From contig JAFSCX010000044.1 in the NCBI GenBank assembly GCA_017436525.1, positions 1,267-65,266 on the forward strand: DNA of 64,000 bases. Direction: 5' to 3'. Source of the stretch: Clostridia bacterium. GTDB lineage: Bacteria; Bacillota; Clostridia; Oscillospirales; QAKW01. Within the stretch, counting starts at the first letter, position 1; every line of letters begins with the position of its first letter. The translations under genes were made by a program, and so were the position numbers. The notes beneath the pieces were generated by a model. The model ran no database searches. It had not been told where the DNA came from and saw only the letters and a program-made list of their open reading frames with translations. Below, piece after piece: positions 109 through 34,802 of the stretch.

Positions 109-345
109 ATGGACGATTTTGATCTGCGGGATCTGCTGTCTCCCCCTCTGCGCCATTGCGCCGAAAACCAAGGCCGGCCCGCAACCCATAAAGAGCCCTC
201 CCTTGAGCCCATGGTCTTGGGAATGGCTTATGTACGCCCTCAAATTTGGGAGGATCTTTATGACACGGAGGATGCTTTTCGCAACGGCACCATCTTCCGC
301 GGATTAGACTATCCCTTTATGGGAAGAGGAGGGAATAAAGAATGA
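109..345 (+). CDS. cotJA: spore coat-associated protein CotJA
   Basis: 78-aa ORF. The C-terminal LGMAYVRPQIW..YDTEDAFRNGTIFRGLDYPF resembles the CotJA family signature. It overlaps the next ORF by 4 bp, as in cotJ operons. Confidence 0.8.
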   Translation: MDDFDLRDLLSPPLRHCAENQGRPATHKEPSLEPMVLGMAYVRPQIWEDLYDTEDAFRNGTIFRGLDYPFMGRGGNKE

Positions 346-593
346 GCGAGCAGGAAAGAATGATGCAGGCGGTTTATACCAATGGATTTGCCGCCGATGA
401 TGCCCGCCTCTTTCTGGATACCCATCCTCAAAGCCGCGAGGCACTGGATTATTATAAAAAGAAAATAGAGCTCTATAAAATCGCGCGGAATCGCTATGAG
501 GAAAAATACGGCCCCATCAGCGTAGAAAATGCCGCCGTCGGTGATCGCTGGGGCTGGGCAGAGCAACGCTGGCCCTGGGAAGGAGGAGAATGA
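342..593 (+). CDS. cotJB: spore coat protein CotJB
   Basis: 83-aa ORF with FAADDARLFLDTHPQSREALDYY, matching the CotJB motif (LYLDTHP..AL). It lies between cotJA and the cotJC start. Confidence 0.85.
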   Translation: MSEQERMMQAVYTNGFAADDARLFLDTHPQSREALDYYKKKIELYKIARNRYEEKYGPISVENAAVGDRWGWAEQRWPWEGGE

Positions 594-596
594 GTT

Positions 597-689
597 ATGT
601 GGAAATATGAAAAACGCTTGCAATACCCTGTAGACATTAAAAAGCCCGACGCGCGCCTTGCCAAGGTCATCATGTCGCAGTTTGGAGGT
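597..689 (+). pseudogene. cotJC: cotJC 5' fragment (codons 1-31), interrupted by prophage insertion
   Basis: ATG at 597 gives MWKYEKRLQYPVDIKKPDARLAKVIMSQFGG, which parallels the CotJC (Mn-catalase-family spore coat protein) N-terminus MWVYEKKLQYPV...EQYGG as I recall it. After G31 the frame runs into phage DNA (LNCKRL) and stops at 708-710. Confidence 0.85.
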
Positions 690-710
690 CTTAACTGCAA
701 AAGGTTATAA
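665..710. other. attL (host arm / central GG 687-688 / phage arm)
   Basis: GGAGG (684-688) is shared with attR (34290-34294). The phage arm carries AAAGGTTATAA (700-710), the exact reverse complement of TTATAACCTTT at 34271-34281. Confidence 0.75.
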
Positions 711-834
711 TTTTATATAGTCAATGGTGAAAGGTCAAAGCCGAGAAATGTCGAACTACGCCCGCAAAAGACGATGATCGGGAAGATTCGATATTTTTCA
801 CTATCATTTAGTTAACCCATATAGGAGGATTAAA

Positions 835-1179
835 ATGACCAACACCATCTATCAATTACTACATCATTTAAGTGCAACCGGTAACTACCGAGGCTTTAAG
901 CTCACGGTGATTGCACTGAGGCTTGTTTTGCAAGATGAAGATTGGCTTCTTCAGATTACCGAGTTATGCCGAGAGGTTGCAAGAATCGCAGGCTGCCCCG
1001 AATGTACCGTAGAGCGAAACATCCGGACGCTGATCAATCGGGTGTGGAAAAATTGCTCGAAACGATTGATTGAGATCGCCGGCTTTCATATGTATGCGCC
1101 GCCCAATGTATCCGAATTCTTGGATATCCTTGCAAATCATATCCGCCGCACCTGCCGCGTTTCGATTTCAAAAGAATAG
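835..1179 (+). CDS. Spo0A C-terminal (DNA-binding) domain-only protein, prophage-encoded
   Basis: 114 aa. YRGFKLTVIALRLVL..LLQITELCREVA....CTVERNIRTLINRVW....IEIAGF.....PPNVSEFLDILANHIR aligns motif by motif with the Spo0A effector domain (KGY.YLREAI..LLGSITK.LY..IA....VERAIRHAIEVAW....FGY...KPTNSEFIA). There is no receiver domain. RBS AGGAGG lies upstream. Confidence 0.75.
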   Translation: MTNTIYQLLHHLSATGNYRGFKLTVIALRLVLQDEDWLLQITELCREVARIAGCPECTVERNIRTLINRVWKNCSKRLIEIAGFHMYAPPNVSEFLDILANHIRRTCRVSISKE

Positions 1180-1182
1180 AAG

Positions 1183-1217
1183 AAAGGCTCTCCTTTGCGG
1201 GAGAGCCTTTCTTTTTT
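1183..1217. terminator. bidirectional intrinsic terminator
   Basis: AAAGGCTCTCC-tttgc-GGGAGAGCCTTT hairpin followed by CTTTTTT. It sits between the convergent 835-1179 (+) and 1216-10626 (-) genes. Confidence 0.8.
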
Positions 1218-4200
1218 AATCCTCTTCGTGAGCCTTCTTATAAGCTTTGATCTTCGCGACCGTCTCCCAGCCCGTAGAAACCGAGAACGGATTATTCTTT
1301 GCAGAGGTCGAGCCGGTAAAGAGTTGCCAGAGAATTGCCTGCTGGCGCCGAGTCAGGCCATCGGTGGAAGCAATGGCCGCTTGAATCCTGCCATTAGATG
1401 CACTATTCTTACCTGCCGCATCATTGGCATCCTCAAGATTCTCTTTGACCATGATAAATTGATCAAGAGAAATATCATGCTCCGTTCCGATTGCAATCCT
1501 GCGCCGATCGGAATCAGATGCAAATAGGCTCATTGCATAAAGTTTTTCGCTCTCATCAACATCGGCGCTTGCAATCGCCTTATACTTTTGCAGATAAGAG
1601 ATACTTTCCTCGCCCTGCTCCGGTGCTATCGCCTCAAGACCTCTCGCGATCTTAACAGCACTTTCTTTTGGAAGCCCCTCACCAATCATTTTGGCCGCCT
1701 TATCGGTATCCACCGAAGAATCGAAATAAATATCATAGAAGGTATCAAAATCAATATTATTCTCTTTTACCACCTTTTGAGCCCGCTCATAGGTGCTCTT
1801 CCCTTCGATCTGCAGAGCCATTTCGGCACCATAGATCTCTCGATTCACCTCCCGATAAATCTCTTCGGCAGATGCTGAAGGATCATTGGCCAGACGCTCA
1901 TCCACTGCTTTGATATACCGTTCATACTCTTCTTCTGATTGAAGCAAAAGAGCATTTCTTGCAGCATATTGGATTTTCAATGCTTCTTCCTTATCCTTTT
2001 TACTAAGAGAGACATTGCCCTGAATCTGCTTGATTTCCTTGCTGATCTCGGAGATCGCCTTAGCTTTATGATTCCACCACCGATATTTCACCTCATCGGC
2101 AGCGGTTGCCTTGCTACTGTTCTTCTTTTCCGTCAGCAGATCCTTTGTATCATAAAAATCACCCTGCAGACGATTAGAATACTCCGAATCAATAACAAAT
2201 GCTTTAGTCAGGAAATTCTGCTGGCTTGCCACCGAAAGCATGGGTAAAATAATATCTCCGGCAACACCGGTATAAGAATCCAGCAGATAATTGATCTTCT
2301 TGGGAGAGATATTCAATGCTCCGCCGATCGCAATAGAGAACTTATCGGTAGTGGCATCATACTGCTCCGCCTTGGGATCATCTTGCATGCTCTGGGGCAC
2401 AATATCTCCGCCATACCAATTTTTATTGAAAGCAATGGCGGTCAGCGCAGATGCAAAGACATTATCCGTCAGCGGATTCATCGGTGCAACCTGATCGGCG
2501 GCCGTGGAGATAAATTCACCCCAGCCAATCTCTTCTCCCTCGATCAACTGCTTAATCCGATATATCGGCATCCCCATTACGGAAAGAACTCTTCCTTTCG
2601 GAATCTTCAGCCAAGAATGATCTCCCGCTTTTATCAGGAAATTTACATCCTTATCCCGCTGCTTGATCTTCTCATATTCATCATCATCTCCGAAAAGAAT
2701 ATCATTGATCAGCGAAGGAGCGATTCCCAAAAGGGCAACCTTTGCAATCAGCCCCACCCATTGGCGGGCGCTTTTTGTCTCTGTCAGCAGGCGGCAAGCT
2801 TTGGACCATCCCTGAATGCTTGGGTTAAAGAAGGGTACCCAATTCTGATTTAAGCGCTTCCCAAGCGTTCCGCTCCGGCCGAAATTAACCGTAATATCCG
2901 CAGCGTTATACATAGCTTCCATCAAGCTATCCATGCTGCCATCGCCTTTTTTAACTGTGGCCATAAATTCCGCCAATCTCGGTGCCTGCTCTATGGCGCG
3001 ATTCAACCATTCAATTCTGTTACCGATATTCCGCTTGATCCATCCGCCTTCCTCTTTGATGATCCCTTGATTATAATCGAATACAGAAGAATAAGTGCCT
3101 CCAAGCGCCTGATACTTCTGCCAATACTCTCCGTTTCGTGCAATCTCCTTCCATGCTGCAGGGTAGTTTCGCAAGAATCCTTTTAGATCCTTCGAATAAA
3201 GAGAAGCATCCTGAATATCTCTTGCAAAGTTTCTCACCGCAAAGGCAGGGTTGTAGCTGGTGATCAACGCTTTATAGAGATTAACCGCTTTATGAGACTG
3301 CTCTTCCAGCCAAAATGTTTTTTCTTTTTCCGGCGAGAGTGCCTTGACCGCCTCCAAGAGCTCCGGCGTTACCGAAAGGGTGTATTGAGTGCCATGGTCA
3401 TATACCATAAAAAGATTTTCCCACTCCTCTTGTTGGAAGGGATCCATCTTGTCGATTGCACCCTCAAACTCCGAAAGCCCGATCATACGATCGGCAGATT
3501 GCTCAAAGTCAACCACCTCTTTGAACTTTCCTTGGCGCGCAAGATCCAAGAGCCTCATTCCAAACCGATTCTTGCTTCCCTCACGCACCACCGATAAAGT
3601 CTGATCGGCGATCTGCTTATGGAGCGGCACCAAATCGGCCACACCGTCCTCCGCTCTGCCTACCGTCTTTCCGATGGATGCCCGATTGCTCTTTCTCGCC
3701 TCAACGCTCTCTTCCGCTTGCACCCTGCGGGTCGGCACATAATGAGGATAAATCGCCCTCAGCTCCTCGGCAAAATCCTTGGAAATCAATCCGCTATCCA
3801 CTCGATATTGCAAAAGATTATCAAGATATCGCCGCACTGCATCTCCAAGCTCCTTAAATTCCGGATGCTCTCGAAGGAGATCCTGCGCCTTACCTTCGCT
3901 GACCTCGGCAGTAACATCAGGGCCGAATACAGGAATATTTCGAATTTCCTCCATCCGCTCCTTAAAATCCAATGCCTTGATATATTCCAACGCTGCAGGC
4001 TGAGATGGATCGCTCCAATCTCCCGCTTTTCTGCGAATATCCCGTTCCGATAGATTGGCAAATTCCGGATAACATTCCGCAATCAGCTCAAAATCTGCCC
4101 GAGCCTGCTCGGTTCTTTCAATGCTCTCGCGGCTCATGCGGTCGATATTATGAAGATGGTAAAGGTAATATTGGAATTGCTCATAATAAGCCTTACCCTT

Positions 4201-7200
4201 CTTCATGATCGGCGAGAAAATCTCATTGAGCCCTTTTCCAATGGTATCGCCAAATATATTGGTCTGCTTGTTTTGAATCATGCTGATTCCCGCATTGGAG
4301 GAAGAACGTGCCATATTGAAATATTGATAGAGATGCTCATCCCCTTTTCTTCGGCCAATATCATAAACCGCATCGCCGGAATCTACCAGCTTCCGCTGGA
4401 TCATATTCCAGCTCTCGCTCATCTTCTCTCCAAAGGTCTTGCGTTCCTCCTGCACCTCAGTAGAAACGCCCGCCTCCGGTGAAGCATTTTCCTCCGCAAA
4501 GCTCGAAGCGGTTCGGGAAAGAAGCGCCATATAACTGCTTGCGTTTTGGCTTGCTCTCTTTGCCTCGCCGCTCTCCATCTCAAAGAGCGCATCGATCTCC
4601 GCCTGCCGATCGGCCGCAAACTGCGCTTGTTCAAAGGGATCCATATCGACAAAGTCTTTGGCGAAATCTGCACCATCATTCTGCGCCGCCACCTCCTCCG
4701 AGGTAAAGAGGGAATCAATGGCATCTGTTTCTGGATCAAAATCCGTTCCGGGGCGGATCTGATCTCCGCCATTTTTCCAGCCATATTCCCTCGCCCGCTG
4801 CTCCTTTACCTTGTTTTCCAACTGAGCGATGATATCCCCGCTCACCTTGCTCTCGCCAAGATGCTGCTCAATGGCTCCCAATACCTTCCGCAGCATCTCC
4901 GCCGATTCGATATCGGTATCCGCCAAGCGATCCACTCCAGCATATGCATTTTCTAAAAAAGCGTCGGCATCCACGCCTCCAAGTCCTTGGGCTTCTTGCA
5001 AAATTCCCTCTTGGCGGTAAAGCTCTGCCAGCTCCACTACCACATCATTGCGGCCGGGGGCAATTAAGGAAGAGACTTTTCGCTGTTTTGGAGTGGAATT
5101 ATTTTTTTCTTGACTATTTTGATTGTTTTGTGATATATTATTATTGGAAGTATTCATTCCATAGCTAGCGGCAATTGGCGCCGTCGGCTCACTGGTTTGG
5201 ATGCTTCTGTTTTTTATTCTAACAATATTTCCTTTTCTCAATTCTTTTTGGATATACCCGCGCAGATCTTCTTTACCAAATACAGTAGCCACCTTATTCA
5301 CATCTATCATCACTCTGTTGCAGTTTGCGTGTTCATTAATATAAACAGGGACATTGATAGTATCTCCGTTTTGATTTTTATGTTGAGAGATAAGGAGAAA
5401 ATATTTTTCTCTTCTGTTTGGATTATCAGCGTTTTTGGTTCCTCGATACGCCTCCGTAACATCCTCTAAGCTATCCATAACCTTCAAAAACAGAGTATCT
5501 CCAAGGCCGTGATAATTAGTTTTACCGTCAACCTTTAACCCCATTGCTTGCGCTTCTTTTTCAGTAAGGATGTTTTCTCTGATATGCGACGCCTTCATGG
5601 CCATCGGAAGATTTTTAGCACCTTTTTGAGAAACTACAATTGACGGTGTAGTTTCTGTTAGCTCAATATCGCCTCCATAATATTTATTGTTTATCGCCTT
5701 TTTAACCTCGGTCGCCGCTCCGTCTTTTAATGAATATTTCATCGCCCCCTCAAGATCCACCGCACCTTCCGCCGCCTGATAATTGGAAGCCGCATCGAGG
5801 GCGGCATCTTCAAAAAGCGCATAGAATTGATCCAATACGCCTTCCATCTGCTGCAGGGCTTGCGCCTCGGCAGATGCGGGGGCGTAATTATTTTTGGAAT
5901 ATTCTGCACGGATTCTTTTCAAAAGGCTTTTGATATGATTGATGATCCGGCTGAAAAGGCTCTGATCCTTCTGCTTCAGTGCGGCAAGCTTCTCCACCGC
6001 CTTGCTATCCAGCAGCATCCGCTCGCAGGCATCACAAACGACCTCCTCATAAGCCAAAGCGGGATCCTCGATCCCTAAAGCCTCTTGCTTTGCCTTAACC
6101 AGCTCATCCATGGAGATCCCATGCTCCCCATATTGCTCCTCTAAGAATTTTGCAAAGGCATCGAATTTTTCTACCGACCACTGCTTAATAAAGTGGGTCA
6201 GTTCATGGCTCATGGTTAAAGCGATGGTCTTTCGATCATCCAAATTCTTCTGCAGATCTAAATGGATGCTGCTATCGGCCTCATTAAAGAAACCATTTGC
6301 ATTAGCGCCATAAGTACCTTCAATAGTGGAATCATAGAAAACAATATCAATCCCGATGGCATTGGCAACCACTTTTGCAAGCTTCACCGCTTGCTTTTGG
6401 GATTCGGTGATGGCTTCTGCCCCCTTTTCAAAACGCACCGCGCCGGTACCAGCCACCGCCTCGGGTGCTTCCGCTTGCTCATCATAGATCATCTCCCGAG
6501 CGATTCTTTGCTCCTGCTCAGTTACTCGATTTTCATTGCAAAAAGCCTCGATCTGCTTCCGCACCGCCGCAAGCTCTGTCCGATCAACCGTATAGGCTTC
6601 CTGCGTTAGCATAACGGAATAATACCGAGCGCAAAACTCATCCTCTGCCATTGAGCGTGAATAATCCAAGCCGCTCACAGCCTTTTGCTGCAGAATGGTA
6701 TTGATCTCCTCTGCAACACCCTCTTCTCCGAGGGTGTTTTTTGCTGCCTGCAGGATGGTTTCTCGAAAGTTCTTTCCCTTTTCCGGCTCCAGCTGCATGA
6801 TCATCTGATAGGCCTGATGGCCGATGGCATAAAAAATCCCCTGATCCAGATCGGTAAGATTCACCGCCATTAAGCCGGAAGCAAGAAAATCTCCCGTTTG
6901 ATGATGATCGGTAACAAGGAAATGAATCCCGCTCATCTCCGAGAGAATATTCAAGGTCTCTGCCGCCTCTTGCTGGGTTTCATTCAAATCAGCTCTGCCT
7001 TCCACGATCACGCCTTCTTTCATGAAGCCTGCCATGGAATCATAATATAAGATCTGCTCAATGGCTTGGGTATCGAATTCCCCGAAAGTATCCTTAAAGA
7101 GGGCAAGGCGGGCTTTAGAAACCTTTCCATTCTCATCGGTAAAGGAAGCAAGGCGGGCAAGGAGTGCGATCTGCCGAGGGGAGATATCCTTTCCCAAGAG

Positions 7201-10200
7201 TTCCTCTCCCATCATCCCCTCAAGGATCGAAAGCAGCCGCTCATCCTTGGCAATGGTCGAAGCTTCTTCTAAGGTGAGGGTTTTTGCAGTCAGCACCTTG
7301 CGGAAGATCTCCTTCGCCCGCTTGATCTCGGCAGGATCTGCACCTTCCATATTGGCCTCGATCATGGTGGAAAGAGTTTTGGCCGCGCCCTTCACTCTGC
7401 GCTTGCGGATGCTCTTTTGGATATTTACAATATCCTTTGCCGAAACGAACGCTGCAGCCCCCTCTTTCCCTTTATATCGGGGTTGCTGATTCTGCTTCGC
7501 TTCTTTGATCTTAAGGGCTGTTTTATTCTCAAGCTGCGCTCCGAGGGAGATCAGCTGATCCACCTCGCCAAGCTGCAGGGTGCGGGCCGCTTCGATTTCT
7601 ATGGCACGATTTTCAAAAGGAGCATAAGCCACCGAGAAGGCACCGCCGGTAATGGCGCCCAAAAGGAAGCTTCTGCCGGCCTCTTCCCAATCGATTTCTT
7701 CCAGCTCAGCATCAGAGATCCCATTAAGATCGGAAGCGATCTTAGAAAGGAAAGGGCTGATCACCTCCTGCAGGAATTCCTCAAAGCCTTCAGCGCCCAT
7801 GGAGGAGGCGATCTTGATAGCGGTTTTTGCGCCTTTGGTAAGTGCAAGCTTCTCAATGCTGCCCTTCAGCTTTGTAAAGAGCCCATTTTTCGAAGTGAGC
7901 CCCGGAATACCACCCAAGATCTTCTCCATTGCCACCTCTGCGGTACCCGATAGCACACCGTGGGTCAGCGCTTCATCAGACCGCTTGCCTGCGGCAATAT
8001 CCTCGGTATAGGTGGTGGCCATGGATTTGGCAAAGATATAACCGGAGGCTGCCGCCTGCCCCACGACCGGCACAAAGGAAACCGCTACCGCAGGCACCAT
8101 ATCTAAAATAGTATAGCCACCCATGTAGATCGTCTCCAATGCCTCGCCGCCGAATCCCATCTGATCCAGTTTTTCTACCGTTACCTGATGAGAAGCGGTC
8201 CCCAAGGTTCCCGCCATCCGCTCATAACTGCCTGCGGCCATATTTTCAAGCATATAGCCGCCTTGTGTTAAGAAACGGGTCAAGCCGGAAAATGCACCTT
8301 TTGTTCCTGCCCACCAATCATTGAGGGAATCAGCCTCAGCTAAAAGGGCCTGCTCCCGCACATTGGCATAATAGGAGAAAGCAAGCTCATGCTCCCCTTC
8401 TGCCAAAAGGGCAAGGACCCGATCCGCCTGCTCTTTTTCAAAGAAGCCGTAATCTCCTTTTGCAAATCCTTCCACATCGGTTTCAAAATCCCGATAATTG
8501 CCATCAAAATATTTTCCTCCATGGCGATATTGCTTCGCAATTTCCGAAAATCCCTCCAAGGAAAATTCCTTCGCTTTTTCTGCCGCCTGATCATCCGGAA
8601 TCAGTTCTTCTGCATATTGCACCACATTCCGATGATAAGCGCCGGTAATCTTCTGCTCTTTTTGGGAAAGCTCTCCGATCTCACCCTGCACCCTTGCAAG
8701 AGTTTCCTCGTTGCCCTCAAGCACACCGGGGAGCCGCTCACCGTCCCGCGTAATATAAACCGCCTTTCCGTCTGCATCATATTCCAGCCGCAAGGTCATC
8801 TGATCCCGTGCATATTGAGCATTCCCGCTCATGATGGTGCTATATTGCATCAGATCTTCCCAACGCCGGCGCACATCGGAATGAAGCTTGCTCACCTTCT
8901 CGGCCCAATTCTTGCCGGCATAAGATTTAGCCCATTGCTCCACTTCTTGATCCTCGGCAGCATTCTTCTCATTGGTCTTTCGGTTCTCAATATATTTTGC
9001 AAGTTTATCAGTTTCTTTTTTATACTCCGAATATTTCTTTTCTTGACCATCCACAATAACATCCGCCAACGAATTCTCTGCATAGTTCGTTTTCTTCAGC
9101 CATTGCACATATCCGGGAAGCCGTGCATTGATCATTTTTTCCTGTTCAGCCTGCAGTGCCTCTAACTCCTCAACAGAATACCCTCCATAGATATCATCCA
9201 TCTTCCGGTATTCTTTTTGGCTCTCATAGGATTCTTCATTCTCCTCATAAGTAACAGCATATTCCTGCATCTGTTTCAAAGCAGGAAGGCTCTTTTTAAG
9301 ATATTCCGCAGCGCCGGAGACAATCTCCTGCTGATCTACGGTGAGATCTACATTCTTCAAAGCATTCTCCAAAGCGGCAACCATACCCTCCGAGGTCTTG
9401 ATATGAATCTCAAGTTCCTTTTTCTCCTCATCGGAGAGTTTCTCCAGCTGATCAAATTTTTCTTTTGCCTTGGTATAGATCTGCTCTGTGGCGGCGGTGG
9501 TGCTGCCGATCCCTTTCTCCAAGCGGTCCAGATAATAAGAATAGGCAGCGTTACGATCCTCAACCGTCTCCGCTTCTTGAAGCATCACATAAGCATCCGC
9601 GATGCGGAAGGTTTCCTTTTCCTTTGCACTCTCAAGGGAACCGGCAGTATCAATGATCTTTTCCAGCCTCTTCACCGTCTCCTTCGCCCATTCAGGCGCC
9701 TTTTCCTGCACTTGAACCGATAAGGCTTCCTTCTTGGTTTTTACATTTTTTACCGAAGGAGCAGCAAGCTTCTCAAGGGCGGTATATCCTTCAGCAGTCA
9801 TTCCCGAAAGCCGTTTCTTGAGCACCCGCTCTTCCATGGCATAATCAAAATACCGCAAGGCCGCCTCCATCTGGCTCCTGCTTCTGCTATCAATTCCGCT
9901 TCGGAATGCAATCCATTCCCGCGCCTCTTGAAGATCCTTAAAGGATTGCCCCGTTTTTTCGGCATACTCAATCGCTTCCCGAACTCCCGATTTAATCTTT
10001 TCGGGTGTTTCATCATCAACAGAAACCTTTTCTTTTTTCTGCTCCACCTTCTTTTGAATCGATACCGTCTCTCCGGCCTTAATAGCCGCAATCGCCTGCT
10101 CATAATCCGCCTTCGCCTTAGCAGCCTTGGCTTTGGCGGCCTGTTTTTGCTGAAATTCCGCGTTTTTCTTCTCGGCAAACGTTCTTACCACGCTATCCTT

Positions 10201-10626
10201 AAAGCCGAGATCTGCCGAAAAAGAGGGATCGTAGATCCCAAGCGCCAGCATATCCATTGCCTCTTGCCGGCGATCGGCAAGCTCTTGCGCTTCCACCGAG
10301 CGAATAGAGCGGCGCTCCTGCTCAACCAAGGAACGATCGGCGCGGCGTTTTTGCTCTGAGCGGTTTCGCTCTGATCGTTCAAAGGAAAGGCGGCTTTGCT
10401 CCATGGAGATTTCCTGCCCCGCCTGCGCCATAGCGATCTGCGCCGCCCTATTTTGGGCTGCAATCTCCTCATCACGGCGGATTTTGGCCGTTTCTGTTTT
10501 GGTTTTAAGGATATTTCGCCCCGAAATGGCGGAAAGAGCCGTCCGAGAGGACTCGGAGGCTCTTTCAAATTCATTCATCATCTGATCCCTTGCTAAAAGG
10601 ACTTGCTTCAAAGTATTATCGCTCAT
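1216..10626 (-). CDS. giant (3136 aa) multidomain virion/ejection ('polyvalent') protein with Zn-metallopeptidase motif
   Basis: Single uninterrupted ORF and last gene of the structural operon. It has an N-terminal K/E/R-rich coiled-coil region, a Gly/Ala-rich hydrophobic segment (..YMGGYTILDMVPAVAVSFVPVVGQAAASGY..), an HELTH motif at nt 6193-6207 (aa 1474-1478) inside ..NGFFNEADSSIHLDL....ALTMSHELTHFIKQW, and a large C-terminal region (..VNFGRSGTLGKRLNQNWVPFFNPSIQGW..). Confidence 0.7.
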   Translation of the reverse strand: MSDNTLKQVLLARDQMMNEFERASESSRTALSAISGRNILKTKTETAKIRRDEEIAAQNRAAQIAMAQAGQEISMEQSRLSFERSERNRSEQKRRADRSLVEQERRSIRSVEAQELADRRQEAMDMLALGIYDPSFSADLGFKDSVVRTFAEKKNAEFQQKQAAKAKAAKAKADYEQAIAAIKAGETVSIQKKVEQKKEKVSVDDETPEKIKSGVREAIEYAEKTGQSFKDLQEAREWIAFRSGIDSRSRSQMEAALRYFDYAMEERVLKKRLSGMTAEGYTALEKLAAPSVKNVKTKKEALSVQVQEKAPEWAKETVKRLEKIIDTAGSLESAKEKETFRIADAYVMLQEAETVEDRNAAYSYYLDRLEKGIGSTTAATEQIYTKAKEKFDQLEKLSDEEKKELEIHIKTSEGMVAALENALKNVDLTVDQQEIVSGAAEYLKKSLPALKQMQEYAVTYEENEESYESQKEYRKMDDIYGGYSVEELEALQAEQEKMINARLPGYVQWLKKTNYAENSLADVIVDGQEKKYSEYKKETDKLAKYIENRKTNEKNAAEDQEVEQWAKSYAGKNWAEKVSKLHSDVRRRWEDLMQYSTIMSGNAQYARDQMTLRLEYDADGKAVYITRDGERLPGVLEGNEETLARVQGEIGELSQKEQKITGAYHRNVVQYAEELIPDDQAAEKAKEFSLEGFSEIAKQYRHGGKYFDGNYRDFETDVEGFAKGDYGFFEKEQADRVLALLAEGEHELAFSYYANVREQALLAEADSLNDWWAGTKGAFSGLTRFLTQGGYMLENMAAGSYERMAGTLGTASHQVTVEKLDQMGFGGEALETIYMGGYTILDMVPAVAVSFVPVVGQAAASGYIFAKSMATTYTEDIAAGKRSDEALTHGVLSGTAEVAMEKILGGIPGLTSKNGLFTKLKGSIEKLALTKGAKTAIKIASSMGAEGFEEFLQEVISPFLSKIASDLNGISDAELEEIDWEEAGRSFLLGAITGGAFSVAYAPFENRAIEIEAARTLQLGEVDQLISLGAQLENKTALKIKEAKQNQQPRYKGKEGAAAFVSAKDIVNIQKSIRKRRVKGAAKTLSTMIEANMEGADPAEIKRAKEIFRKVLTAKTLTLEEASTIAKDERLLSILEGMMGEELLGKDISPRQIALLARLASFTDENGKVSKARLALFKDTFGEFDTQAIEQILYYDSMAGFMKEGVIVEGRADLNETQQEAAETLNILSEMSGIHFLVTDHHQTGDFLASGLMAVNLTDLDQGIFYAIGHQAYQMIMQLEPEKGKNFRETILQAAKNTLGEEGVAEEINTILQQKAVSGLDYSRSMAEDEFCARYYSVMLTQEAYTVDRTELAAVRKQIEAFCNENRVTEQEQRIAREMIYDEQAEAPEAVAGTGAVRFEKGAEAITESQKQAVKLAKVVANAIGIDIVFYDSTIEGTYGANANGFFNEADSSIHLDLQKNLDDRKTIALTMSHELTHFIKQWSVEKFDAFAKFLEEQYGEHGISMDELVKAKQEALGIEDPALAYEEVVCDACERMLLDSKAVEKLAALKQKDQSLFSRIINHIKSLLKRIRAEYSKNNYAPASAEAQALQQMEGVLDQFYALFEDAALDAASNYQAAEGAVDLEGAMKYSLKDGAATEVKKAINNKYYGGDIELTETTPSIVVSQKGAKNLPMAMKASHIRENILTEKEAQAMGLKVDGKTNYHGLGDTLFLKVMDSLEDVTEAYRGTKNADNPNRREKYFLLISQHKNQNGDTINVPVYINEHANCNRVMIDVNKVATVFGKEDLRGYIQKELRKGNIVRIKNRSIQTSEPTAPIAASYGMNTSNNNISQNNQNSQEKNNSTPKQRKVSSLIAPGRNDVVVELAELYRQEGILQEAQGLGGVDADAFLENAYAGVDRLADTDIESAEMLRKVLGAIEQHLGESKVSGDIIAQLENKVKEQRAREYGWKNGGDQIRPGTDFDPETDAIDSLFTSEEVAAQNDGADFAKDFVDMDPFEQAQFAADRQAEIDALFEMESGEAKRASQNASSYMALLSRTASSFAEENASPEAGVSTEVQEERKTFGEKMSESWNMIQRKLVDSGDAVYDIGRRKGDEHLYQYFNMARSSSNAGISMIQNKQTNIFGDTIGKGLNEIFSPIMKKGKAYYEQFQYYLYHLHNIDRMSRESIERTEQARADFELIAECYPEFANLSERDIRRKAGDWSDPSQPAALEYIKALDFKERMEEIRNIPVFGPDVTAEVSEGKAQDLLREHPEFKELGDAVRRYLDNLLQYRVDSGLISKDFAEELRAIYPHYVPTRRVQAEESVEARKSNRASIGKTVGRAEDGVADLVPLHKQIADQTLSVVREGSKNRFGMRLLDLARQGKFKEVVDFEQSADRMIGLSEFEGAIDKMDPFQQEEWENLFMVYDHGTQYTLSVTPELLEAVKALSPEKEKTFWLEEQSHKAVNLYKALITSYNPAFAVRNFARDIQDASLYSKDLKGFLRNYPAAWKEIARNGEYWQKYQALGGTYSSVFDYNQGIIKEEGGWIKRNIGNRIEWLNRAIEQAPRLAEFMATVKKGDGSMDSLMEAMYNAADITVNFGRSGTLGKRLNQNWVPFFNPSIQGWSKACRLLTETKSARQWVGLIAKVALLGIAPSLINDILFGDDDEYEKIKQRDKDVNFLIKAGDHSWLKIPKGRVLSVMGMPIYRIKQLIEGEEIGWGEFISTAADQVAPMNPLTDNVFASALTAIAFNKNWYGGDIVPQSMQDDPKAEQYDATTDKFSIAIGGALNISPKKINYLLDSYTGVAGDIILPMLSVASQQNFLTKAFVIDSEYSNRLQGDFYDTKDLLTEKKNSSKATAADEVKYRWWNHKAKAISEISKEIKQIQGNVSLSKKDKEEALKIQYAARNALLLQSEEEYERYIKAVDERLANDPSASAEEIYREVNREIYGAEMALQIEGKSTYERAQKVVKENNIDFDTFYDIYFDSSVDTDKAAKMIGEGLPKESAVKIARGLEAIAPEQGEESISYLQKYKAIASADVDESEKLYAMSLFASDSDRRRIAIGTEHDISLDQFIMVKENLEDANDAAGKNSASNGRIQAAIASTDGLTRRQQAILWQLFTGSTSAKNNPFSVSTGWETVAKIKAYKKAHEED

Positions 10627-26239: not shown

Positions 26240-26675
26240 CGTATCCTTCCTTTCTGTCAAAAACTGTACCAATTACTTTGGCACGCTCCGCAAAGAAATT
26301 ATCAAGATCATCAGTTGCACCATTTTCCGTCCAAGCAACCTCAAAGCGACAAAGCGCATCATTCCAACGAACAATGAAATCTTCTCCTTCACCATCATCT
26401 CCGTAAAACCGGCAAATATCTCCTTCAAAGATAATTCCGCGCTTTGCCTTCATTCCGGTGCAGCTTCCTATTGTCTCCGGTATAACATTCCAGATTCGGC
26501 TCTTTTTGCCAAAATTTCGAATATAATAAACGGTTACCTCTCCTTTAGAGGCTACAATTCTTAAGTTACCTTTTACCCACCAACCTTTGATGAGTTGACC
26601 ATTTATGTAAATATTTTCTGATCCGCTTGAATCTTCATGAAATCCACGAAAAACAAATCTACTCTTTGAATTCAT
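26226..26675 (-). CDS. YopX-family phage protein
   Basis: ..VIPETIGSCTGMKAKRGIIFEGDICRF....VIGTVFD matches the YopX pattern (v.peTvgq.TGl.Dk.G..IyEGDI ... viGNi.d). Confidence 0.7.
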   Translation of the reverse strand: MNSKSRFVFRGFHEDSSGSENIYINGQLIKGWWVKGNLRIVASKGEVTVYYIRNFGKKSRIWNVIPETIGSCTGMKAKRGIIFEGDICRFYGDDGEGEDFIVRWNDALCRFEVAWTENGATDDLDNFFAERAKVIGTVFDRKEGYDGIL

Positions 26676-27696
26676 TCATTTCCTCCTTGATTCTTTTATC
26701 CATCGCAACGGATAGATTGTAACAATTTCCATGGGATATGTGATTCTTCCAAGCATTATAGGAAGCATTAAATTTATCTTTAGATAACCTTCCGCTCGCA
26801 ACCAACTTGGCCATTTTCAGATATTTGCGCTGGGCATTTCGCTTATTTTGATTTTTCAGCTTGCGGATCGCTCTGCCATTGGACGTTATATAGGTATGGA
26901 ATCCAAGATAATTAACCCCGTTTTTGAATGGAAATATTTGTGTTTTTTCGTTAAGCGTCAGATCCAGTGTTTTCAAAAACTCTGCGATCACCTCAAGGCA
27001 ATATTTCAGATATTCTTTGCTCGGATGTATTAAGTAGAAATCATCCATATACCTGCCGTAAAACTCTATTCCCAGTTCTCCCGTTATCAGCTTGTCCATG
27101 CCGTCTAAATACAACAGTGCCAAGCCTTGGTTGATCTGATTACCAAGCGGAAGGCCTTTGCCCTCGGTGCTATCAATAAAAAGATTGATCAACCAACAAA
27201 TATCTGGATCATACGAAAAATAAAAATCAACCATATCCTTTAATTGCTCATGGGAGATGTTATAAAAGAATTTTGAGATATCGCATTTAAGGATATAACC
27301 ACTTTTTTCATACCTACCGTAAAAAGCTCTCATCTGATCAGATAATCGATCAAGACCGAAGAGCGTTCCTTTCCCTTTTTGTCCGGCACAATTATCATAC
27401 AGAAACACCTCCTGCAGTTTCGGCAAGAGTACGTTATCGCAAAGGCTATGTTGTACAACCTTATCTTTGAAAGATGTTGTTTTAATGATCCGTTCTTTTG
27501 GCTCATACACCTTAAATTCATGATAATCAGATATCCGGTAGGTTTTATCTTTCAATTGCTGTATCAATGAATTAATTCCATCTAAGGCCATCACATTAAA
27601 CCTTGCGGCACTCTTTTTATAACCCTTGCCGCTTTTGGCTTTACGGTAAGCCTTATACAGATTGTTAAAGTCAATTACTTTCTCAAACTCGGTCAT
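26659..27696 (-). CDS. diversity-generating retroelement (DGR) reverse transcriptase
   Basis: 345 aa with RT motifs, including GLPLGNQINQGLALLYL (DGR-type I/LGxxxSQ-like motif 4) and YGRYMDDFYL (YMDD). It lies immediately 3' of an Avd gene and a TR that matches two VRs. Confidence 0.9.
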   Translation of the reverse strand: MTEFEKVIDFNNLYKAYRKAKSGKGYKKSAARFNVMALDGINSLIQQLKDKTYRISDYHEFKVYEPKERIIKTTSFKDKVVQHSLCDNVLLPKLQEVFLYDNCAGQKGKGTLFGLDRLSDQMRAFYGRYEKSGYILKCDISKFFYNISHEQLKDMVDFYFSYDPDICWLINLFIDSTEGKGLPLGNQINQGLALLYLDGMDKLITGELGIEFYGRYMDDFYLIHPSKEYLKYCLEVIAEFLKTLDLTLNEKTQIFPFKNGVNYLGFHTYITSNGRAIRKLKNQNKRNAQRKYLKMAKLVASGRLSKDKFNASYNAWKNHISHGNCYNLSVAMDKRIKEEMNEFKE

Positions 27697-27806
27697 ACAA
27701 CACGCCTTCTTTTTTGTTTATCCATACGGAAAGGCTGTATGTTCTTTTGATGAAGTGGTGTTCTGATTTCGGCTTTTGCCTACTCTGTCTGACGATCCAC
27801 CAATAC

Positions 27807-27871
27807 GGGCGCACGCCGTTATTGTTGTTGTAGTTGTTGTTATTGTTGATGTTGCCGCGGGGCGAGACACA
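27807..27871 (-). repeat. DGR template repeat (TR)
   Basis: Coding-strand sequence: TGTGTCTCGCCCCGCGGC AAC ATC AAC AAT AAC AAC AAC TAC AAC AAC AAT AAC GGCGTGCGCCCG. There are 22 adenines in the central 36 nt. The invariant flanks are identical to VR1 and VR2. Confidence 0.9.
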
Positions 27872-28268
27872 AAAAATACAACACACAGCCTATATTTAAT
27901 CTTTTTTTCTCTTTGCTCCTCCAAGCAATAGCCATATACTTAACATCAGAAGTAATCTTGGACCAATAAGATGCCGAATGATCCGCAAGCAACCCTAAAT
28001 TCATTGATAATTCAATAAAGAATAGCAGCTCATCGCAATAGGTTATAGCTCTCGTGATAGTTTCACAGCGTTGTCGCTTATCGGTAACATTATTGATCCG
28101 GTTCGCCTCAAAAAGCGTCTCGTAGATCTCCAAGCTCTTAATCTGAATCTTATCTACAAGAGAATGGCGATATTTCTTTGGATATCTATTGCAATTAGAT
28201 GTCAATTTGAAAGAATGTACCGCCAATTCCTTAGCCTTGACGATTACCTTCAATTCAGTATCTGCCAC
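27840..28268 (-). CDS. avd: DGR accessory variability determinant (Avd), four-helix-bundle family
   Basis: 142 aa with a GTG start. ..NRYPKKYRHSLVDKIQIKSLEIYETLFEANRI... resembles Avd and 23S-rRNA-IVS four-helix-bundle proteins. It lies between the targets and the TR, and its 3' end overlaps the TR. Confidence 0.8.
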   Translation of the reverse strand: MADTELKVIVKAKELAVHSFKLTSNCNRYPKKYRHSLVDKIQIKSLEIYETLFEANRINNVTDKRQRCETITRAITYCDELLFFIELSMNLGLLADHSASYWSKITSDVKYMAIAWRSKEKKRLNIGCVLYFLCLAPRQHQQ

Positions 28269-28273
28269 GATCC

Positions 28274-28813
28274 TCAGTCCTCACAAGATACAGAGATTGA
28301 AGATACAAAGCACAAAATCGGGCGCACGCCGAGACAGTCGTCGTTGCAGTCGCCGTCATTGAGGATGCCGCCGCGGGGCGAGACACAAAGTCGCCAAGAA
28401 GGATCACAGTGCGGCAGCGCAGTATCTGCAGTAGCAAGCCACCACCAATCATTTACCTTGTACATATCAAACAAATCAACATGCTTCCGGTAAAAATCAA
28501 AGGTCGGGATGCTGATTTTCGAATTTATTTTTCCATATCCTTTCAAGCCATCCAGCGTTGTAAGATCGGTTTCAAAATCACAAATATTTTCAGCACCCAC
28601 TTCTTTTTCGATCATTGGCAGAAACTCTTTATTCAGCCGTTCTAAAACCTTACTTTTTGAAAAATCATTGTTGCCATACTCAGATTTGAAAGCAACACCC
28701 TTTGCGACAACCGTAATTTTTCCATCATTATCCTCCATCTTGATGAAGGACTCTCCACCTACCCGGAAGGACTTTCCAATTTCAACTTCACTTAATTTAA
28801 CAGTATTTTTCAT
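28274..28813 (-). CDS. DGR target protein 1 (C-type-lectin/FGE-like variable C-terminus)
   Basis: Start at MKNTVKLSEV (28813) behind GGAGG. The C-terminus ..WWWLATAD....CVSPRGGILNDGDCNDDCLGVRP.. carries VR1. Paralogous to target 2. Confidence 0.85.
   Translation of the reverse strand: MKNTVKLSEVEIGKSFRVGGESFIKMEDNDGKITVVAKGVAFKSEYGNNDFSKSKVLERLNKEFLPMIEKEVGAENICDFETDLTTLDGLKGYGKINSKISIPTFDFYRKHVDLFDMYKVNDWWWLATADTALPHCDPSWRLCVSPRGGILNDGDCNDDCLGVRPILCFVSSISVSCED
28320..28387 (-). repeat. DGR variable repeat VR1 (68 nt, one codon longer than TR)
   Basis: Flanks are identical to the TR. All 14 substitutions relative to the TR fall at TR adenines. There is one extra GAC codon in the AAC run. 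Confidence 0.85.
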
Positions 28814-28814
28814 A

Positions 28815-29435
28815 TTATTTTTCCTCCACTTTAGATACAAAGATATTAGAATTTAAGATACAAAACGGGCGCACGCCGCTAATGATGTCGTAGCTGTCGC
28901 TATTGTGGATGCCGCCGCGGGGCGAGACACACTTCACCCATGAACTATTATCATGCTTCGGAGTGCTATATGCCGTAGCAGTCCACCACCAATCGTCGAT
29001 CTTATATTCATCCAGAAGATCAACATATTTTCTATAAAGATTTGCGGTAAGTAAAGACATTTTCCTTTCAATGCTGCCATAACATTTCAAACCATCATCA
29101 GCAGTCAGATTCACCGTATGTTTAATAAGGTTCTCCTCGCCGATGATCTTTTCGATCTCGCACCCAAAATCTTTGCAAATAGCATCTACATTTGAGCCAT
29201 CATAATTGTTGTTTTCACCAAAAAATTCACTATTACGATACAGAGCCTTAAGAATCACCGCCGCGGCATTTTCAGACTGCTCAAGTACGATAAATTCGTA
29301 GTCGCCAACCTTAAATGTTTTCCCTGCCTCAATATCCGCAAGTTTGATTTGCGTTTTTTCAAAGCTACGCTTGATCTCCTCAGCCTGCTCAGCGGTTAAT
29401 TCGATTTTCTTTCCGTTCAACATCATGTAATTCAT
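28815..29435 (-). CDS. DGR target protein 2 (paralog of target 1)
   Basis: 206 aa. The C-terminus ..WWWTATAY....CVSPRGGIHNSDSYDIISGVRP.. carries VR2. Confidence 0.85.
   Translation of the reverse strand: MNYMMLNGKKIELTAEQAEEIKRSFEKTQIKLADIEAGKTFKVGDYEFIVLEQSENAAAVILKALYRNSEFFGENNNYDGSNVDAICKDFGCEIEKIIGEENLIKHTVNLTADDGLKCYGSIERKMSLLTANLYRKYVDLLDEYKIDDWWWTATAYSTPKHDNSSWVKCVSPRGGIHNSDSYDIISGVRPFCILNSNIFVSKVEEK
28867..28931 (-). repeat. DGR variable repeat VR2 (65 nt, same length as TR)
   Basis: 10 substitutions relative to the TR, all at TR adenine positions. Flanks GTGTCTCGCCCCGCGGC and GGCGTGCGCCCG are identical. Confidence 0.9.
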
Positions 29436-30831: not shown

Positions 30832-30887
30832 GATATGAAAGATTTGTCAAGTATTTTATTTCGTTTTGTGAGAATTTTCTTTTTGTG

Positions 30888-30916
30888 TTGATTTGCTTCA
30901 CATTTTGTGATATTTT
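30888..30916 (+). promoter_or_regulatory. candidate repressor (cI-like) promoter
   Basis: TTGATT, 17 nt, TGaTATTTT (extended -10), with the -10 overlapped by the GTGATAT half-site. Confidence 0.5.
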
Positions 30917-30941
30917 TAGAATTATAAGGAGGCGAGTTATT

Positions 30942-31367
30942 ATGTTTGAAAAAAATCTCAAGCAATTACGAAAAGAAAGAAATCTCACCCAAACCGAATT
31001 GGCACTTCATCTTCGGGTTTCTCTGGGCGCTATTGGTAATTGGGAAGCAGGAAACCGTACACCCGATGCACAAATGCTTTTAACCATCGCTGACTATTTC
31101 GGCGTTTCTACAGATCGCCTTTTGCGTGATCCAAATTTCACAGACACCCCTTTCTCCCAAAAAGAAAAACGGTTGATCTCTGCATATAGAAATCAACCGG
31201 ATATTCAATTAGCGGTAGATCGGCTCTTGGGGGTTGATACCCCACTGAAATTAATATCGGAAAATAAAAGCGCGGCTTTGGGAGGAGACGAGACCCCAAT
31301 TATCTCCAATGCAAGTTCTAACGAAATTGCATCAACAATCAGAAAAATAAAAAAAGAAGGGGAATAA
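30942..31367 (+). CDS. CI/ImmR-like XRE-family repressor
   Basis: ATG 30942 behind AAGGAGG. MFEKNLKQLRKERNLTQTELALHLRVSLGAIGNWEAGNRTP is an XRE HTH, followed by a C-terminal extension. Divergent from the cro-like gene. Confidence 0.8.
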   Translation: MFEKNLKQLRKERNLTQTELALHLRVSLGAIGNWEAGNRTPDAQMLLTIADYFGVSTDRLLRDPNFTDTPFSQKEKRLISAYRNQPDIQLAVDRLLGVDTPLKLISENKSAALGGDETPIISNASSNEIASTIRKIKKEGE

Positions 31368-31961: not shown

Positions 31962-32030
31962 ATAGAACTATAGATTTTCGACATTATTTGCGGTAACCTT
32001 AAGTTAAATCATTATTAACGGAGGTTACCC

Positions 32031-32759: not shown

Positions 32760-32774
32760 AAGGAGGTGAAAACT

Positions 32775-34226
32775 ATGGAAATCTTTGCAGGCTATATCCG
32801 CGTCAGCACTGATGATCAAACCGAATACTCCCCCGATAGCCAGATGAAGCTCCTGCGGGAACGCGCCGAAAAGGACGGCGGCATGATTCCGGAAGAATAT
32901 ATGTTCGCAGATCCCGGCATCAGCGGCAAGGATGCCGCCCACCGCCCCGAATTCAACCGCATGATTGCTTTAGCAAAGCAAAAAGATCCCCCTTTTCGGA
33001 GGATCTATGTTTGGAAATTCAGCCGCTTCGCCCGCAACCAAGAGGAAAGCATTGTATTTAAGAATATGCTCCGCAAAAACGGAGTAGAGATCGTCAGCAT
33101 CTCCGAGCCTTTAGTGGAGGGTGCCTTCGGCTCCCTGATAGAGCGCATTATCGAATGGCAAGATGAATATTACCTGATCAACCTTTCCGGCGAGGTAAAG
33201 CGCGGCATGATGGAAAAAGCAAGCCGCGGCGAGGCCATGTGCCGGGTATTCGGTCTCGATATCAAAGATCTCTCCTATGTCAAAAATGCCGATAACCCCC
33301 ATGTGGTTGATATCTTTGAATCCTTTGATCAAGGAGAGAACCTTCGCTCTATCGCCAAGCGTCTCGATGCCGCAGGGGTACGCACCCCAAGAGGAAACTC
33401 GCCCGATATTCGCTTTGTGGAATATATCCTTCGCAACCCTATCTATATTAAAAAGCTTCGATGGAGCTCCGAGGGAAATCCTTGCTCCAAGCGCCGCTAT
33501 GACGATCCAAACATTAAGATTTTCGATGCAAAAGCACCTCGCACGGTTTCCGATGAGCTTTTCTATCGAGTGCAAAAGCGCCTCGATGATCGCAAGGCAC
33601 TCTATGCCAGATCGGACCGCCCCAATACCGGCCGCCCTTGGCTCCTAAAAGGAATTGCCAAATGCGACTGCGGCGGATCCTTAGTGTTTGCATCTGCCAA
33701 AGAGCCCTCTGTTCAATGTAATAACTATAACCATATGCGCGGTTGCACCGTCAGCCACCATATTTCCCAAAGAAAACTGTTTGAATCCTTTGTAATCGGT
33801 CTTAGAAACTGCTGTGCCCTCGATCGCTACGATACCGATCCCGATGCACCTATCAAAAAAGCCTCCGAAAGCGCCCCCGCCGATTTTCAAAAACTCATCG
33901 CCGCCGAGGAGCGCAAGCTCGCTCGCTGCGCCGCCGCCTTTCAGGCCGGCATTGATACGATGGAGGAATACGCAAAAAATAAGGCCGAGATCCAAAAGCG
34001 AATCAACGCCCTTGAGCAGGAAGCTTCCCGCCAAGCGAATAAACTCTCCCCCGAATCAGCAAAAGCCGCCTCTATCGAGGATTACCGCACCCGCACCATG
34101 GCGCTGATCCACACCCTTGAAGATCCGGAGATCCCTATCCCCTTAAAAAACGATGCCACCCGCTCCCTGATCTCCCGCGTCGTCTTCCACAAACCGGATA
34201 ACACCCTATCCATCTTCTTCAAATAA
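32775..34226 (+). CDS. large serine recombinase (prophage integrase)
   Basis: ATG 32775 lies 8 nt after AGGAGG. AGYIRVSTDDQ carries the catalytic Ser motif of the resolvase domain. A recombinase/zinc-ribbon region (CDCGGSL....C..YNHMRGC) and a C-terminal coiled coil follow. It is the last gene before attR. Confidence 0.9.
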   Translation: MEIFAGYIRVSTDDQTEYSPDSQMKLLRERAEKDGGMIPEEYMFADPGISGKDAAHRPEFNRMIALAKQKDPPFRRIYVWKFSRFARNQEESIVFKNMLRKNGVEIVSISEPLVEGAFGSLIERIIEWQDEYYLINLSGEVKRGMMEKASRGEAMCRVFGLDIKDLSYVKNADNPHVVDIFESFDQGENLRSIAKRLDAAGVRTPRGNSPDIRFVEYILRNPIYIKKLRWSSEGNPCSKRRYDDPNIKIFDAKAPRTVSDELFYRVQKRLDDRKALYARSDRPNTGRPWLLKGIAKCDCGGSLVFASAKEPSVQCNNYNHMRGCTVSHHISQRKLFESFVIGLRNCCALDRYDTDPDAPIKKASESAPADFQKLIAAEERKLARCAAAFQAGIDTMEEYAKNKAEIQKRINALEQEASRQANKLSPESAKAASIEDYRTRTMALIHTLEDPEIPIPLKNDATRSLISRVVFHKPDNTLSIFFK

Positions 34227-34270
34227 CCACCCCTTGAAATCTCAAAATCGACCCTTTACCATACCTATTT

Positions 34271-34316
34271 TTATAACCTTTAACATTTCGGAGGCCCCGA
34301 TGGAGAACTGGGCGCA
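34271..34316. other. attR (phage arm / central GG 34293-34294 / host arm)
   Basis: TTATAACCTTT-aacatttcgga-GG, then cotJC sequence. It mirrors the attL phage arm: the reconstructed attP has 11-bp inverted repeats placed 11 nt either side of GG. Confidence 0.75.
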
Positions 34317-34802
34317 TCTCAGCGTTATCTTTCCCAGCGCTATTCCATGCCCTATCGGGAGGTTTCCGCCCTGCTCACCGATATCGGTACCGAGGAGCTG
34401 GCCCATATGGAAATTGTATCTACCATTGTGCGGCAGCTCTTAAAGGGGCTCTCTGCCGATGAGATCCAAGCCCAAGGCTTTGCCGACTATTATACCGACC
34501 ATACCGCCGGAATCTGGCCGCAGGCGGCAAGCGGTGAGCCTTGGAGCGCCACCACCTTCCAATCCAAAGGAGATCCCATCACCGATCTTTTTGAGGATAT
34601 GGGCGCGGAGCAAAAGGCCCGTACCACCTATGATAACCTGCTGCGGTTGATTAAGGATCCGGATGTACGGGATCCCATCAAATTCCTCCGCCAGCGGGAG
34701 ATCAACCATTTCCAACGTTTCGGTGAAGCCCTCGGCCAAGTCCGCCGCCATCTGGACAGCAAAAACTACTATCGCTTCAACCCTGCCTTTGATAAAAAAT
34801 AA
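34290..34802 (+). pseudogene. cotJC: cotJC 3' fragment (resumes at Gly30/31)
   Basis: In-frame GGPDGELGASQRYLSQRYSMPYREVSALLTDIGTEELAHMEIV....KGDPITDLFEDMGAEQKARTTY....FLRQREINHFQRF is the CotJC/Mn-catalase family. No start codon or RBS of its own lies upstream. Confidence 0.9.

Follow-up and report, generated by a model that had tools for sequence, protein, structure and literature searches.

The 64,000-nt window analyzed here (positions 1,267 to 65,266 of the forward strand of contig JAFSCX010000044.1, assembly GCA_017436525.1, from a Clostridia bacterium of the Oscillospirales) contains a prophage that splits the host spore-coat gene cotJC. [quoted passage not shown] It was found to carry its own conserved upstream DNA with a perfect Spo0A-binding motif (0A box), and to be kept beside the phage attachment site (attP) in related phages irrespective of their type of integrase. 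From these sequence comparisons we consider the chance somewhat better than even that the gene forms a self-contained cassette beside the attachment (att) site, controlled through 0A boxes and encoding a receiver-less paralogue of the Spo0A DNA-binding domain.

The Spo0A_C gene is located at 835-1179 on the plus strand and encodes 114 aa, with its ATG at 835 and a strong ribosome binding site (RBS; AGGAGG) at 823-828. The Pfam profile PF08769 (Spo0A_C) matched the open reading frame (ORF) with an E-value of 1.8e-18 and 66.9 bits (cutoff of 25), and residues 5-103 were aligned on profile positions 1-104 of 104, that is, over the whole domain. In contrast, TIGR02875, the equivalog model of full-length Spo0A, was matched at positions 151-261 only, with 24.8 bits compared to a cutoff of 200. 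The N-terminal receiver domain with its phospho-acceptor aspartate is therefore absent from the 114-aa product, and the first-pass annotation, which had described the ORF as a Spo0A effector domain lacking a receiver, was confirmed. The ORF also matched over its full length a PHROG family of unknown function (phrog_24603, E-value of 2.6e-18), and a sequence search of the PDB returned the Spo0A C-domains 1fc3 and 1lq1 and nothing else. The AlphaFold2 (AF2) model of the protein had a predicted local distance difference test (pLDDT) value of 88.9. A comparison of folds had been named earlier as a possible refutation of the assignment; in the Foldseek comparison the AF2 model was superimposed on 1fc3_A with a template modeling (TM) score of 0.83 and a root mean square deviation of 1.7 Å, 1lq1 was also matched, and no fold other than the Spo0A C-domain scored below an E-value of 0.1. 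The ratio of nonsynonymous to synonymous substitution rates (dN/dS) against the closest relatives, calculated with lineage L016 left out, was 0.07-0.10. These findings show that the ORF is under purifying selection.

The noncoding DNA in front of the gene is conserved as well. When the upstream regions of five close lineages were aligned, conservation was found to begin approximately 89-90 nt before the ATG, delimiting a block at 745-834 (plus strand), and the DNA farther upstream was unrelated. The block of the window was 72-79% identical to that of each relative, compared to 40-59% identity at the third codon positions of the ORF and approximately 40% in the sequence farther upstream. This noncoding block of about 89 nt is under purifying selection and is better conserved than the third codon positions, indicating that the gene carries regulatory DNA of its own. 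The 5' edge of the block is AAATGTCGAA, which contains a perfect 0A box, TGTCGAA (749-755), 86 nt before the ATG. This box is kept in the relatives and fits the consensus TGNCGAA, which is the 0A box in Clostridium too (PMC4690370). The block also contains the invariant element GATCGGGAA-N-ATTCGATATTTT with an inverted 0A-like box, TTCGATA at 787-793, matching at 6 of 7 positions. A weaker 0A-like site, AGACGAT at 770-776 (plus strand), was found there together with a putative -10 element, TATCAT (TATTAT in the relatives), at 802-807 on the plus strand. Over the whole window, perfect TGTCGAA was not more frequent than expected (3 found compared to 5.2 expected), and relaxed boxes (TGNCGAA) were not enriched either (30 observed compared to 41 expected).

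To assess the association of 0A boxes with the gene family, homologs were drawn from species-representative genomes, viral contigs and metagenomes. In 109 distinct upstream regions of 200 nt, 35 perfect boxes were present in 33 regions compared to 2.8 expected, nearly all of them in the forward orientation and at -70 to -118, and for the other genes of these loci a box was present in only 19 of 516 upstream regions (Fisher p of 6e-15). The picture was the same in another set, which was obtained from metagenome contigs in a separate retrieval without removal of overlaps with the first set: a box was present in 27 of 64 regions compared to 2.9 expected, with 27 boxes in the forward and 2 in the reverse orientation, most of them at -85 to -104. 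A metagenome scan with the single protein had returned no relatives; the alignment-based scan returned distant homologs only (46% identity or less), which were used as this replication set. Moreover, TGTCGAA ranked first in an unbiased scan of 7-mers, being found in 50 of 160 distinct upstream regions and in 5 of 529 controls (p of 3e-29), usually 85-105 nt before the start and nearly always forward, and the runners-up were overlapping variants of the same motif. The upstream sequences are phylogenetically non-independent, although at least 20 clearly distinct ones are represented among them. In many homologs a second box was present one helical turn downstream (TGTCGAA-N4-GTC, a tandem with 10-bp spacing), which is reportedly the arrangement that a pair of Spo0A domains occupies in the structure 1LQ1.

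The family itself is large, with 1,525 clusters at 50% identity (E below 1e-10). The 150 best-scoring representatives were mostly stand-alone proteins of 107-130 aa, and in a few of them 2-7 Spo0A_C repeats were fused. Chromosomal copies and tandem-fused forms for which a phage context was not evident also belong to the family. The 80 best genome matches were from Clostridia except for a few metagenome bins that carry the label of another phylum, and a tblastn search of the 114-aa protein against 50,697 GenBank phage records returned no match at an E-value of 1e-3. As a separate observation, representatives P0013, P0019, P0050 and P0098 carry 2-7 tandem Spo0A_C domains per polypeptide, which would suit arrays of 0A boxes. 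The residues of the recognition helix were strongly conserved in the 146 single-domain representatives (E60 in 94%, R61 in 86%, R64 in 97% and W71 in 98%). E60, R61 and R64 are present in the ORF and align with E213, R214 and R217 of Bacillus subtilis Spo0A, which we presume to be base-contact residues. At the positions of B. subtilis residues 227-240, which we take to be the patch that activates sigma-A, the ORF has different residues (C74, R77, I79, A82 and M86), and within the family another conserved set takes the place of the patch, F236 being replaced by A in 84% and S231 by L in 78%. Because the residues of this patch are replaced, the protein would more probably act as a competitor or repressor at Spo0A sites than as a canonical activator.

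Several observations weigh against control of the cassette through 0A boxes. A perfect box was found in only 30-40% of the family members, and the lineage of the window has one perfect box and two imperfect ones compared to the tandem pair of many homologs. The sigma-70 scan of the plus strand within 594-834 detected no promoter and the -35 region is poor, so that we infer the cassette promoter from conservation only. In addition, the roles given above to E213, R214 and R217 and to the 227-240 patch are putative assignments that follow the B. subtilis literature (Zhao 2002; Buckner 1998; Hatt and Youngman 1998), the base contacts reportedly being those of the 1LQ1 paper.

The four closest lineages by protein identity (L191, 85%; L016, 81%; L028-L030, 77%; L192, 73%) keep the gene, the upstream block and, where the contig reaches that far, the convergent gene, which was identified as encoding an LPD38-domain protein in L016. 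The terminator that follows the gene in the window is also kept 3' of the gene in L016. In L016, L028/L029 and L192, a tyrosine integrase gene was found on the same strand 330-460 nt upstream of the Spo0A_C gene, and the upstream region of L191 aligned with the same kind of tyrosine-integrase-type DNA. Upstream of the gene in L016 there is a tRNA 3' fragment followed by a hairpin and T run, the hairpin being read by eye. These close relatives look like the unintegrated order integrase, attP, Spo0A_C. The viral contig L017, which encodes a homolog 41% identical, has a repressor, an ORF, a serine recombinase, a gap of 227 nt, the Spo0A_C gene and a convergent lysin gene. The order integrase, attP, Spo0A_C, terminator and convergent late gene thus occurs with tyrosine and serine integrases alike, indicating that the position of Spo0A_C across attP is conserved whatever the integrase or target. 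Among these lineages, the cassette lies behind cotJ only in the lineage of the window.

This synteny also bears on a role of the protein in recombination. A small protein encoded beside attP, with no other candidate identified, could be the recombination directionality factor of the serine recombinase, and the directionality factors of serine integrases vary widely and are not easily recognized. That role is nevertheless highly improbable and was rejected because homologs 73-85% identical accompany tyrosine integrases, so that co-inheritance with a cognate serine integrase was not found. Moreover, the fold is that of a sequence-specific helix-turn-helix transcription factor, and an integrase was found within a few kilobases of only a minority of homologs (first 110 loci, in a seed-based search of low sensitivity). 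The role of excision trigger or directionality-factor regulator that the first-pass annotation had offered was left without support, since the same protein travels with tyrosine integrases.

Two other prophages, L025 and L048, split cotJC at the same GGPDGE site as the prophage of the window, their CotJC being 68% and 61% identical, respectively, and their distant Spo0A_C homologs are antisense to cotJ. It was also observed that stand-alone Spo0A_C homologs lie beside cotJ in three distantly related loci (L025, 1972-3095; L048, 5898-8342; L018, 5857-7212). In L018 the Spo0A_C gene is located just upstream of a cotJA-cotJB-cotJC operon with a terminator between them, and this operon is unbroken past the split site to the end of the contig. 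The recurrence beside cotJ in L025, L048 and L018 may reflect a shared att-site preference or more.

In the window, the Spo0A_C gene follows host cotJA (109-345, plus strand; Pfam CotJA, E-value of 1.2e-13), host cotJB (342-593, plus strand; Pfam CotJB, E-value of 8.5e-25) and a 37-aa 5' fragment of cotJC (597-710, plus strand), which matched the N-terminus of Mn_catalase at profile positions 1-32 with an E-value of 3.5e-7. The gap from the stop codon of this fragment to the ATG of the Spo0A_C gene was measured as 124 nt. The terminator scan detected no terminator-like site on the plus strand within 594-834, and the predicted RNA fold of 594-840 was as stable as that of shuffled sequence (z of -0.13), in agreement with the earlier remark that no convincing hairpin with a T-run precedes the ORF. 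The single notable hairpin in 594-840 is formed by the pairing of two inverted 0A-like boxes, and it is read here as a DNA site with no terminator role. Downstream of the gene, the strong bidirectional terminator that had been noted was placed at 1180-1213; it is an intrinsic terminator with a 14-bp stem and T runs on both strands, and it serves both the Spo0A_C and the LPD38 genes. The remaining long ORFs between 1216 and 30988 are all on the minus strand, and the Spo0A_C gene is, as previously stated, the sole plus-strand gene of the left arm.

Since no terminator separates cotJAB from the ORF and the strand is the same, read-through from cotJ is physically possible. The first-pass annotation had gone further, suggesting that the gene is transcribed from the host cotJ promoter specifically during sporulation. 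In its full form this explanation holds that the main expression comes by read-through from the mother-cell (sigma-E) cotJ promoter and that the resulting sporulation pulse triggers or regulates excision. The orientation shared with cotJAB and the cotJC fragment, the 124-nt gap, the lack of terminator-like sites and unusually stable hairpins in 594-834, and the terminator that insulates the virion genes are all consistent with it. So is the finding that the exact 114-aa protein occurs on 17 contigs and that the integrated form lies behind the cotJ genes in all 8 informative ones; in addition, the 0A box upstream of orf242 and the recombinase gene (see below) could tie the protein to recombinase expression. 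However, in the four closest lineages it is tyrosine-integrase-type attP DNA that precedes the cassette, with the tRNA fragment and the hairpin seen by eye in L016; the homologs of L025 and L048 are antisense to cotJ; and conserved upstream DNA comes with the gene itself. Furthermore, B. subtilis is the only species for which cotJ is known to be under sigma-E, and no convincing match to sigma-H or sigma-E motifs was found by eye upstream of the ORF or of cotJA. We therefore regard read-through as the main source of expression as unlikely. What stands of the original proposal is the common strand, the attL position and the lack of a terminator in between; as the designed mode of expression it does not stand, the relatives having their own upstream block and other flanks. 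The comparisons indicate that cotJ read-through is possible in this lysogen, yet is not the conserved feature, and it appears to be a by-product of the insertion site of this lineage's recombinase. The link to sporulation that had been proposed remains plausible and finds a better explanation in the 0A box that is conserved within the DNA upstream of the gene itself.

Two further sequence features were observed around the cotJ genes. A hairpin with a perfect stem, GATTGAACCGCTTTTTCGGCTCAATC, is located at 55-80, in the leader that separates the RBS of cotJA from the likely promoter region of cotJ. On the minus strand, a good sigma-70-like promoter at 710-738 (TTGACC-17-TAAAAT, 10 of 12 matches) points outward across attL, antisense to the cotJC fragment. 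In the circular phage form, transcription from it would enter the end of the recombinase gene in the antisense direction.

The prophage has a second perfect 0A box at 31977-31983 on the minus strand, within the 69-nt gap that precedes orf242 and the recombinase gene. Through this box, expression of the recombinase could be linked to Spo0A-type proteins. orf242 has an HExxH motif and looks ImmA-like.

The presence of this box inside the lysogeny operon, together with the 0A boxes upstream of the family's own genes, could also mean that the protein is a phage-internal regulator which merely uses the Spo0A_C fold, the TGTCGAA sites being its own operators, for autoregulation and for control of lysogeny or late genes, and no interplay with sporulation being intended. 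In the circular form the gene is co-oriented with and downstream of the repressor-recombinase operon, as would suit such a regulator, and the chromosomal and tandem-fused family members without obvious phage context also count in its favor. On the other hand, the recognized site is the canonical host 0A box and the residues of the recognition helix match those of Spo0A, so that cross-talk with phosphorylated host Spo0A (Spo0A~P) would be hard to avoid. The near confinement of the family to Clostridia among the 80 best genome matches and the several members that adjoin cotJ genes also argue against it. This explanation is doubtful in our view, but it is a more serious contender than expression by cotJ read-through.

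In the favored explanation, a self-contained cassette under 0A-box control, the gene would be transcribed from its own putative promoter with the -10 element at 802-807. The 0A boxes would determine the activity of this promoter, with host Spo0A~P acting on them when sporulation begins, the phage protein acting on them in autoregulation, or both. Phosphorylation would not be needed for the product to bind 0A boxes of host and phage DNA, and the product would let the prophage read and bias the sporulation decision of the host. Read-through from cotJ may add expression in this lysogen and would be incidental to the acquired integration module. A more elaborate two-step circuit can be imagined, in which Spo0A~P induces the stand-alone Spo0A_C genes of Clostridia phages and other mobile elements through the 0A box and their phosphorylation-independent products then occupy 0A boxes, latching or vetoing sporulation; here, sigma-E read-through from cotJ and the 0A box of the recombinase operon would tie the protein to a mother-cell excision that rebuilds cotJC. 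We consider this circuit quite improbable.

Receiver-less spo0A homologs have been described in human-gut phages, and action without a phosphorelay was proposed for them (Schwartz et al. 2023, mBio, PMC10294663). The receiver-less phage spo0A type is thus already described and the gene at 835-1179 belongs to it, the genes of that report likewise encoding the effector domain only and residing in phages of spore-forming Firmicutes. In the available portion of that report they form a sequence catalogue in which genomic position and regulatory DNA are not discussed, whereas here the gene was mapped next to attP and the 0A-box region was followed across the family; the family-wide 0A-box wiring and the attP-side mapping across integrase types are the new elements. 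PF08769 is also enriched on mobile elements of gut Firmicutes (PMC6907783). The effector domain of Spo0A contains a helix-turn-helix and a sigma-A activator region (PMC4690370). Compared to the structures 1FC3 and 1LQ1, the product of the ORF shares the six-helix fold and the conserved V-E-R-x-I-R motif, W, P and SEF positions, but it is only 22-24% identical to Spo0A and has neither receiver nor linker. The signature of the subfamily is VERNIRT compared to VERAIRH in Spo0A, and the sigma-A patch positions are replaced.

The cassette resembles phage morons, or lysogenic-conversion cassettes next to att sites, in being a single gene that has upstream regulatory DNA and a terminator to itself, located between the last late gene and the att site and oriented opposite to the late genes. 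Its terminator was confirmed; its promoter is putative, being deduced from the conserved upstream DNA and missed by the sigma-70 scan. The cassette also differs in that the circular form puts the gene directly downstream of the recombinase with no terminator between. Control of phage phi29 by host Spo0A is reported to operate through 0A boxes of the phage DNA (Meijer et al. 2005). In both systems, 0A boxes in phage DNA would couple phage expression to the sporulation state of the host; phi29 uses the host protein only, whereas the phage described here also encodes a Spo0A-like DNA-binding domain.

The prophage extends from approximately 689 to 34294 (33.6 kb), and the Spo0A_C gene is the first gene inside attL. 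Samples in which this prophage is present include ERZ28018964, SRR12529058 and SRR12529065. The cotJC 5' fragment is host-encoded to about nt 689 (ending in SQFGG) and is phage DNA thereafter, with its stop codon at 708-710. The remainder of cotJC (34290-34802, plus strand), which begins with GGPDGELG and includes the stop codon, comes directly after the gene of a large serine recombinase of 486 aa (32766-34226, plus strand), which matched Resolvase (E-value of 3e-25) and Recombinase (E-value of 3.8e-14) and, weakly and below threshold, Zn_ribbon_recom (E-value of 6.7e-4, 20.4 bits compared to a cutoff of 25.3). When 597-689 was joined to 34290-34802, a continuous CotJC of 199 aa was obtained, and precise excision would restore the reading frame. 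The attL site (681-711) consists of the core TTTGGAGGTC (681-690) and the attP right arm AAAGGTTATAA (700-710), and attR (34271-34296) of the attP left arm TTATAACCTTT (34271-34281) and the core TTCGGAGGCC (34287-34296). The core common to both is TT(T/C)GGAGG(T/C)C, and the reconstructed attP, TTATAACCTTT-N24-AAAGGTTATAA, has perfect 11-bp inverted arms around the GGAGG core. These findings show that the large serine recombinase inserted the 33.6-kb prophage into cotJC. No attB or attP junction was present in the assemblies examined, and exact searches of IMG/VR with the reconstructed attP junction and with the conserved upstream block gave no match, so that no excised form was detected directly.

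A skin-like element within cotJC is known from Laceyella sacchari (Galperin et al. 2022, bioRxiv 10.1101/2022.02.25.481979). Like that element, skin (in sigK) and SP-beta (in spsM), the prophage has a large serine recombinase gene at its end and interrupts a reading frame; the disrupted gene is expressed in the mother cell in B. subtilis, and precise excision would restore it. In contrast to these elements, an apparently complete phage (terminase, portal, capsid and lysin) is found here in a gut Clostridia host, and for it excision during sporulation and a directionality factor are hypothetical.

The lysogeny operon is on the plus strand in the order Xre repressor, orf195, orf242 and recombinase, its first gene (30885-31367, plus strand) encoding an Xre/cI-type repressor (HTH_3, E-value of 7.5e-15). 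The genes for the terminase, portal, major head protein, endolysin and replication initiator are on the minus strand. In the circular phage form, no terminator would lie between the recombinase stop and the Spo0A_C gene (34227-34296 joined to 690-1213), and the terminator at 1180-1213 would close the lysogeny operon, so that integration parts the recombinase gene from its terminator. This topology of recombinase and terminator resembles that of lambda int and sib.

Convergent with the Spo0A_C gene is the gene for the giant LPD38-domain phage protein of 3136 aa (1216-10626, minus strand), the neighbor that is kept in the close relatives. This LPD38 "polyvalent" protein gene makes up 28% of the 33.6-kb phage genome. 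A diversity-generating retroelement was also observed inside the prophage at 26659-29435 of the window. It comprises genes for a reverse transcriptase (26659-27696) and an Avd-like protein (27840-28268), both on the minus strand, a template repeat at about 27801-27873, and variable repeats at 28340-28389 and 28861-28933, which lie at the 3' ends of two genes paralogous to each other. Mismatches between template and variable repeats are largely at plus-strand T, which is A on the coding strand. Scans of the 64-kb window against Rfam at gathering thresholds and for tRNA genes gave no match.

The gene at 835-1179 is an ordinary one for phages of gut Clostridia. In approximately one third of the upstream regions of these phage genes, a canonical 0A box is present in the correct orientation and at a constant distance from the start codon, and this result makes the idea of phage-manipulated sporulation specifically testable, through induction by Spo0A~P, autoregulation and competition with Spo0A~P. 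It is relevant to spore formation and transmission of gut Clostridia, and to the timing of decisions by temperate phages in spore-formers.

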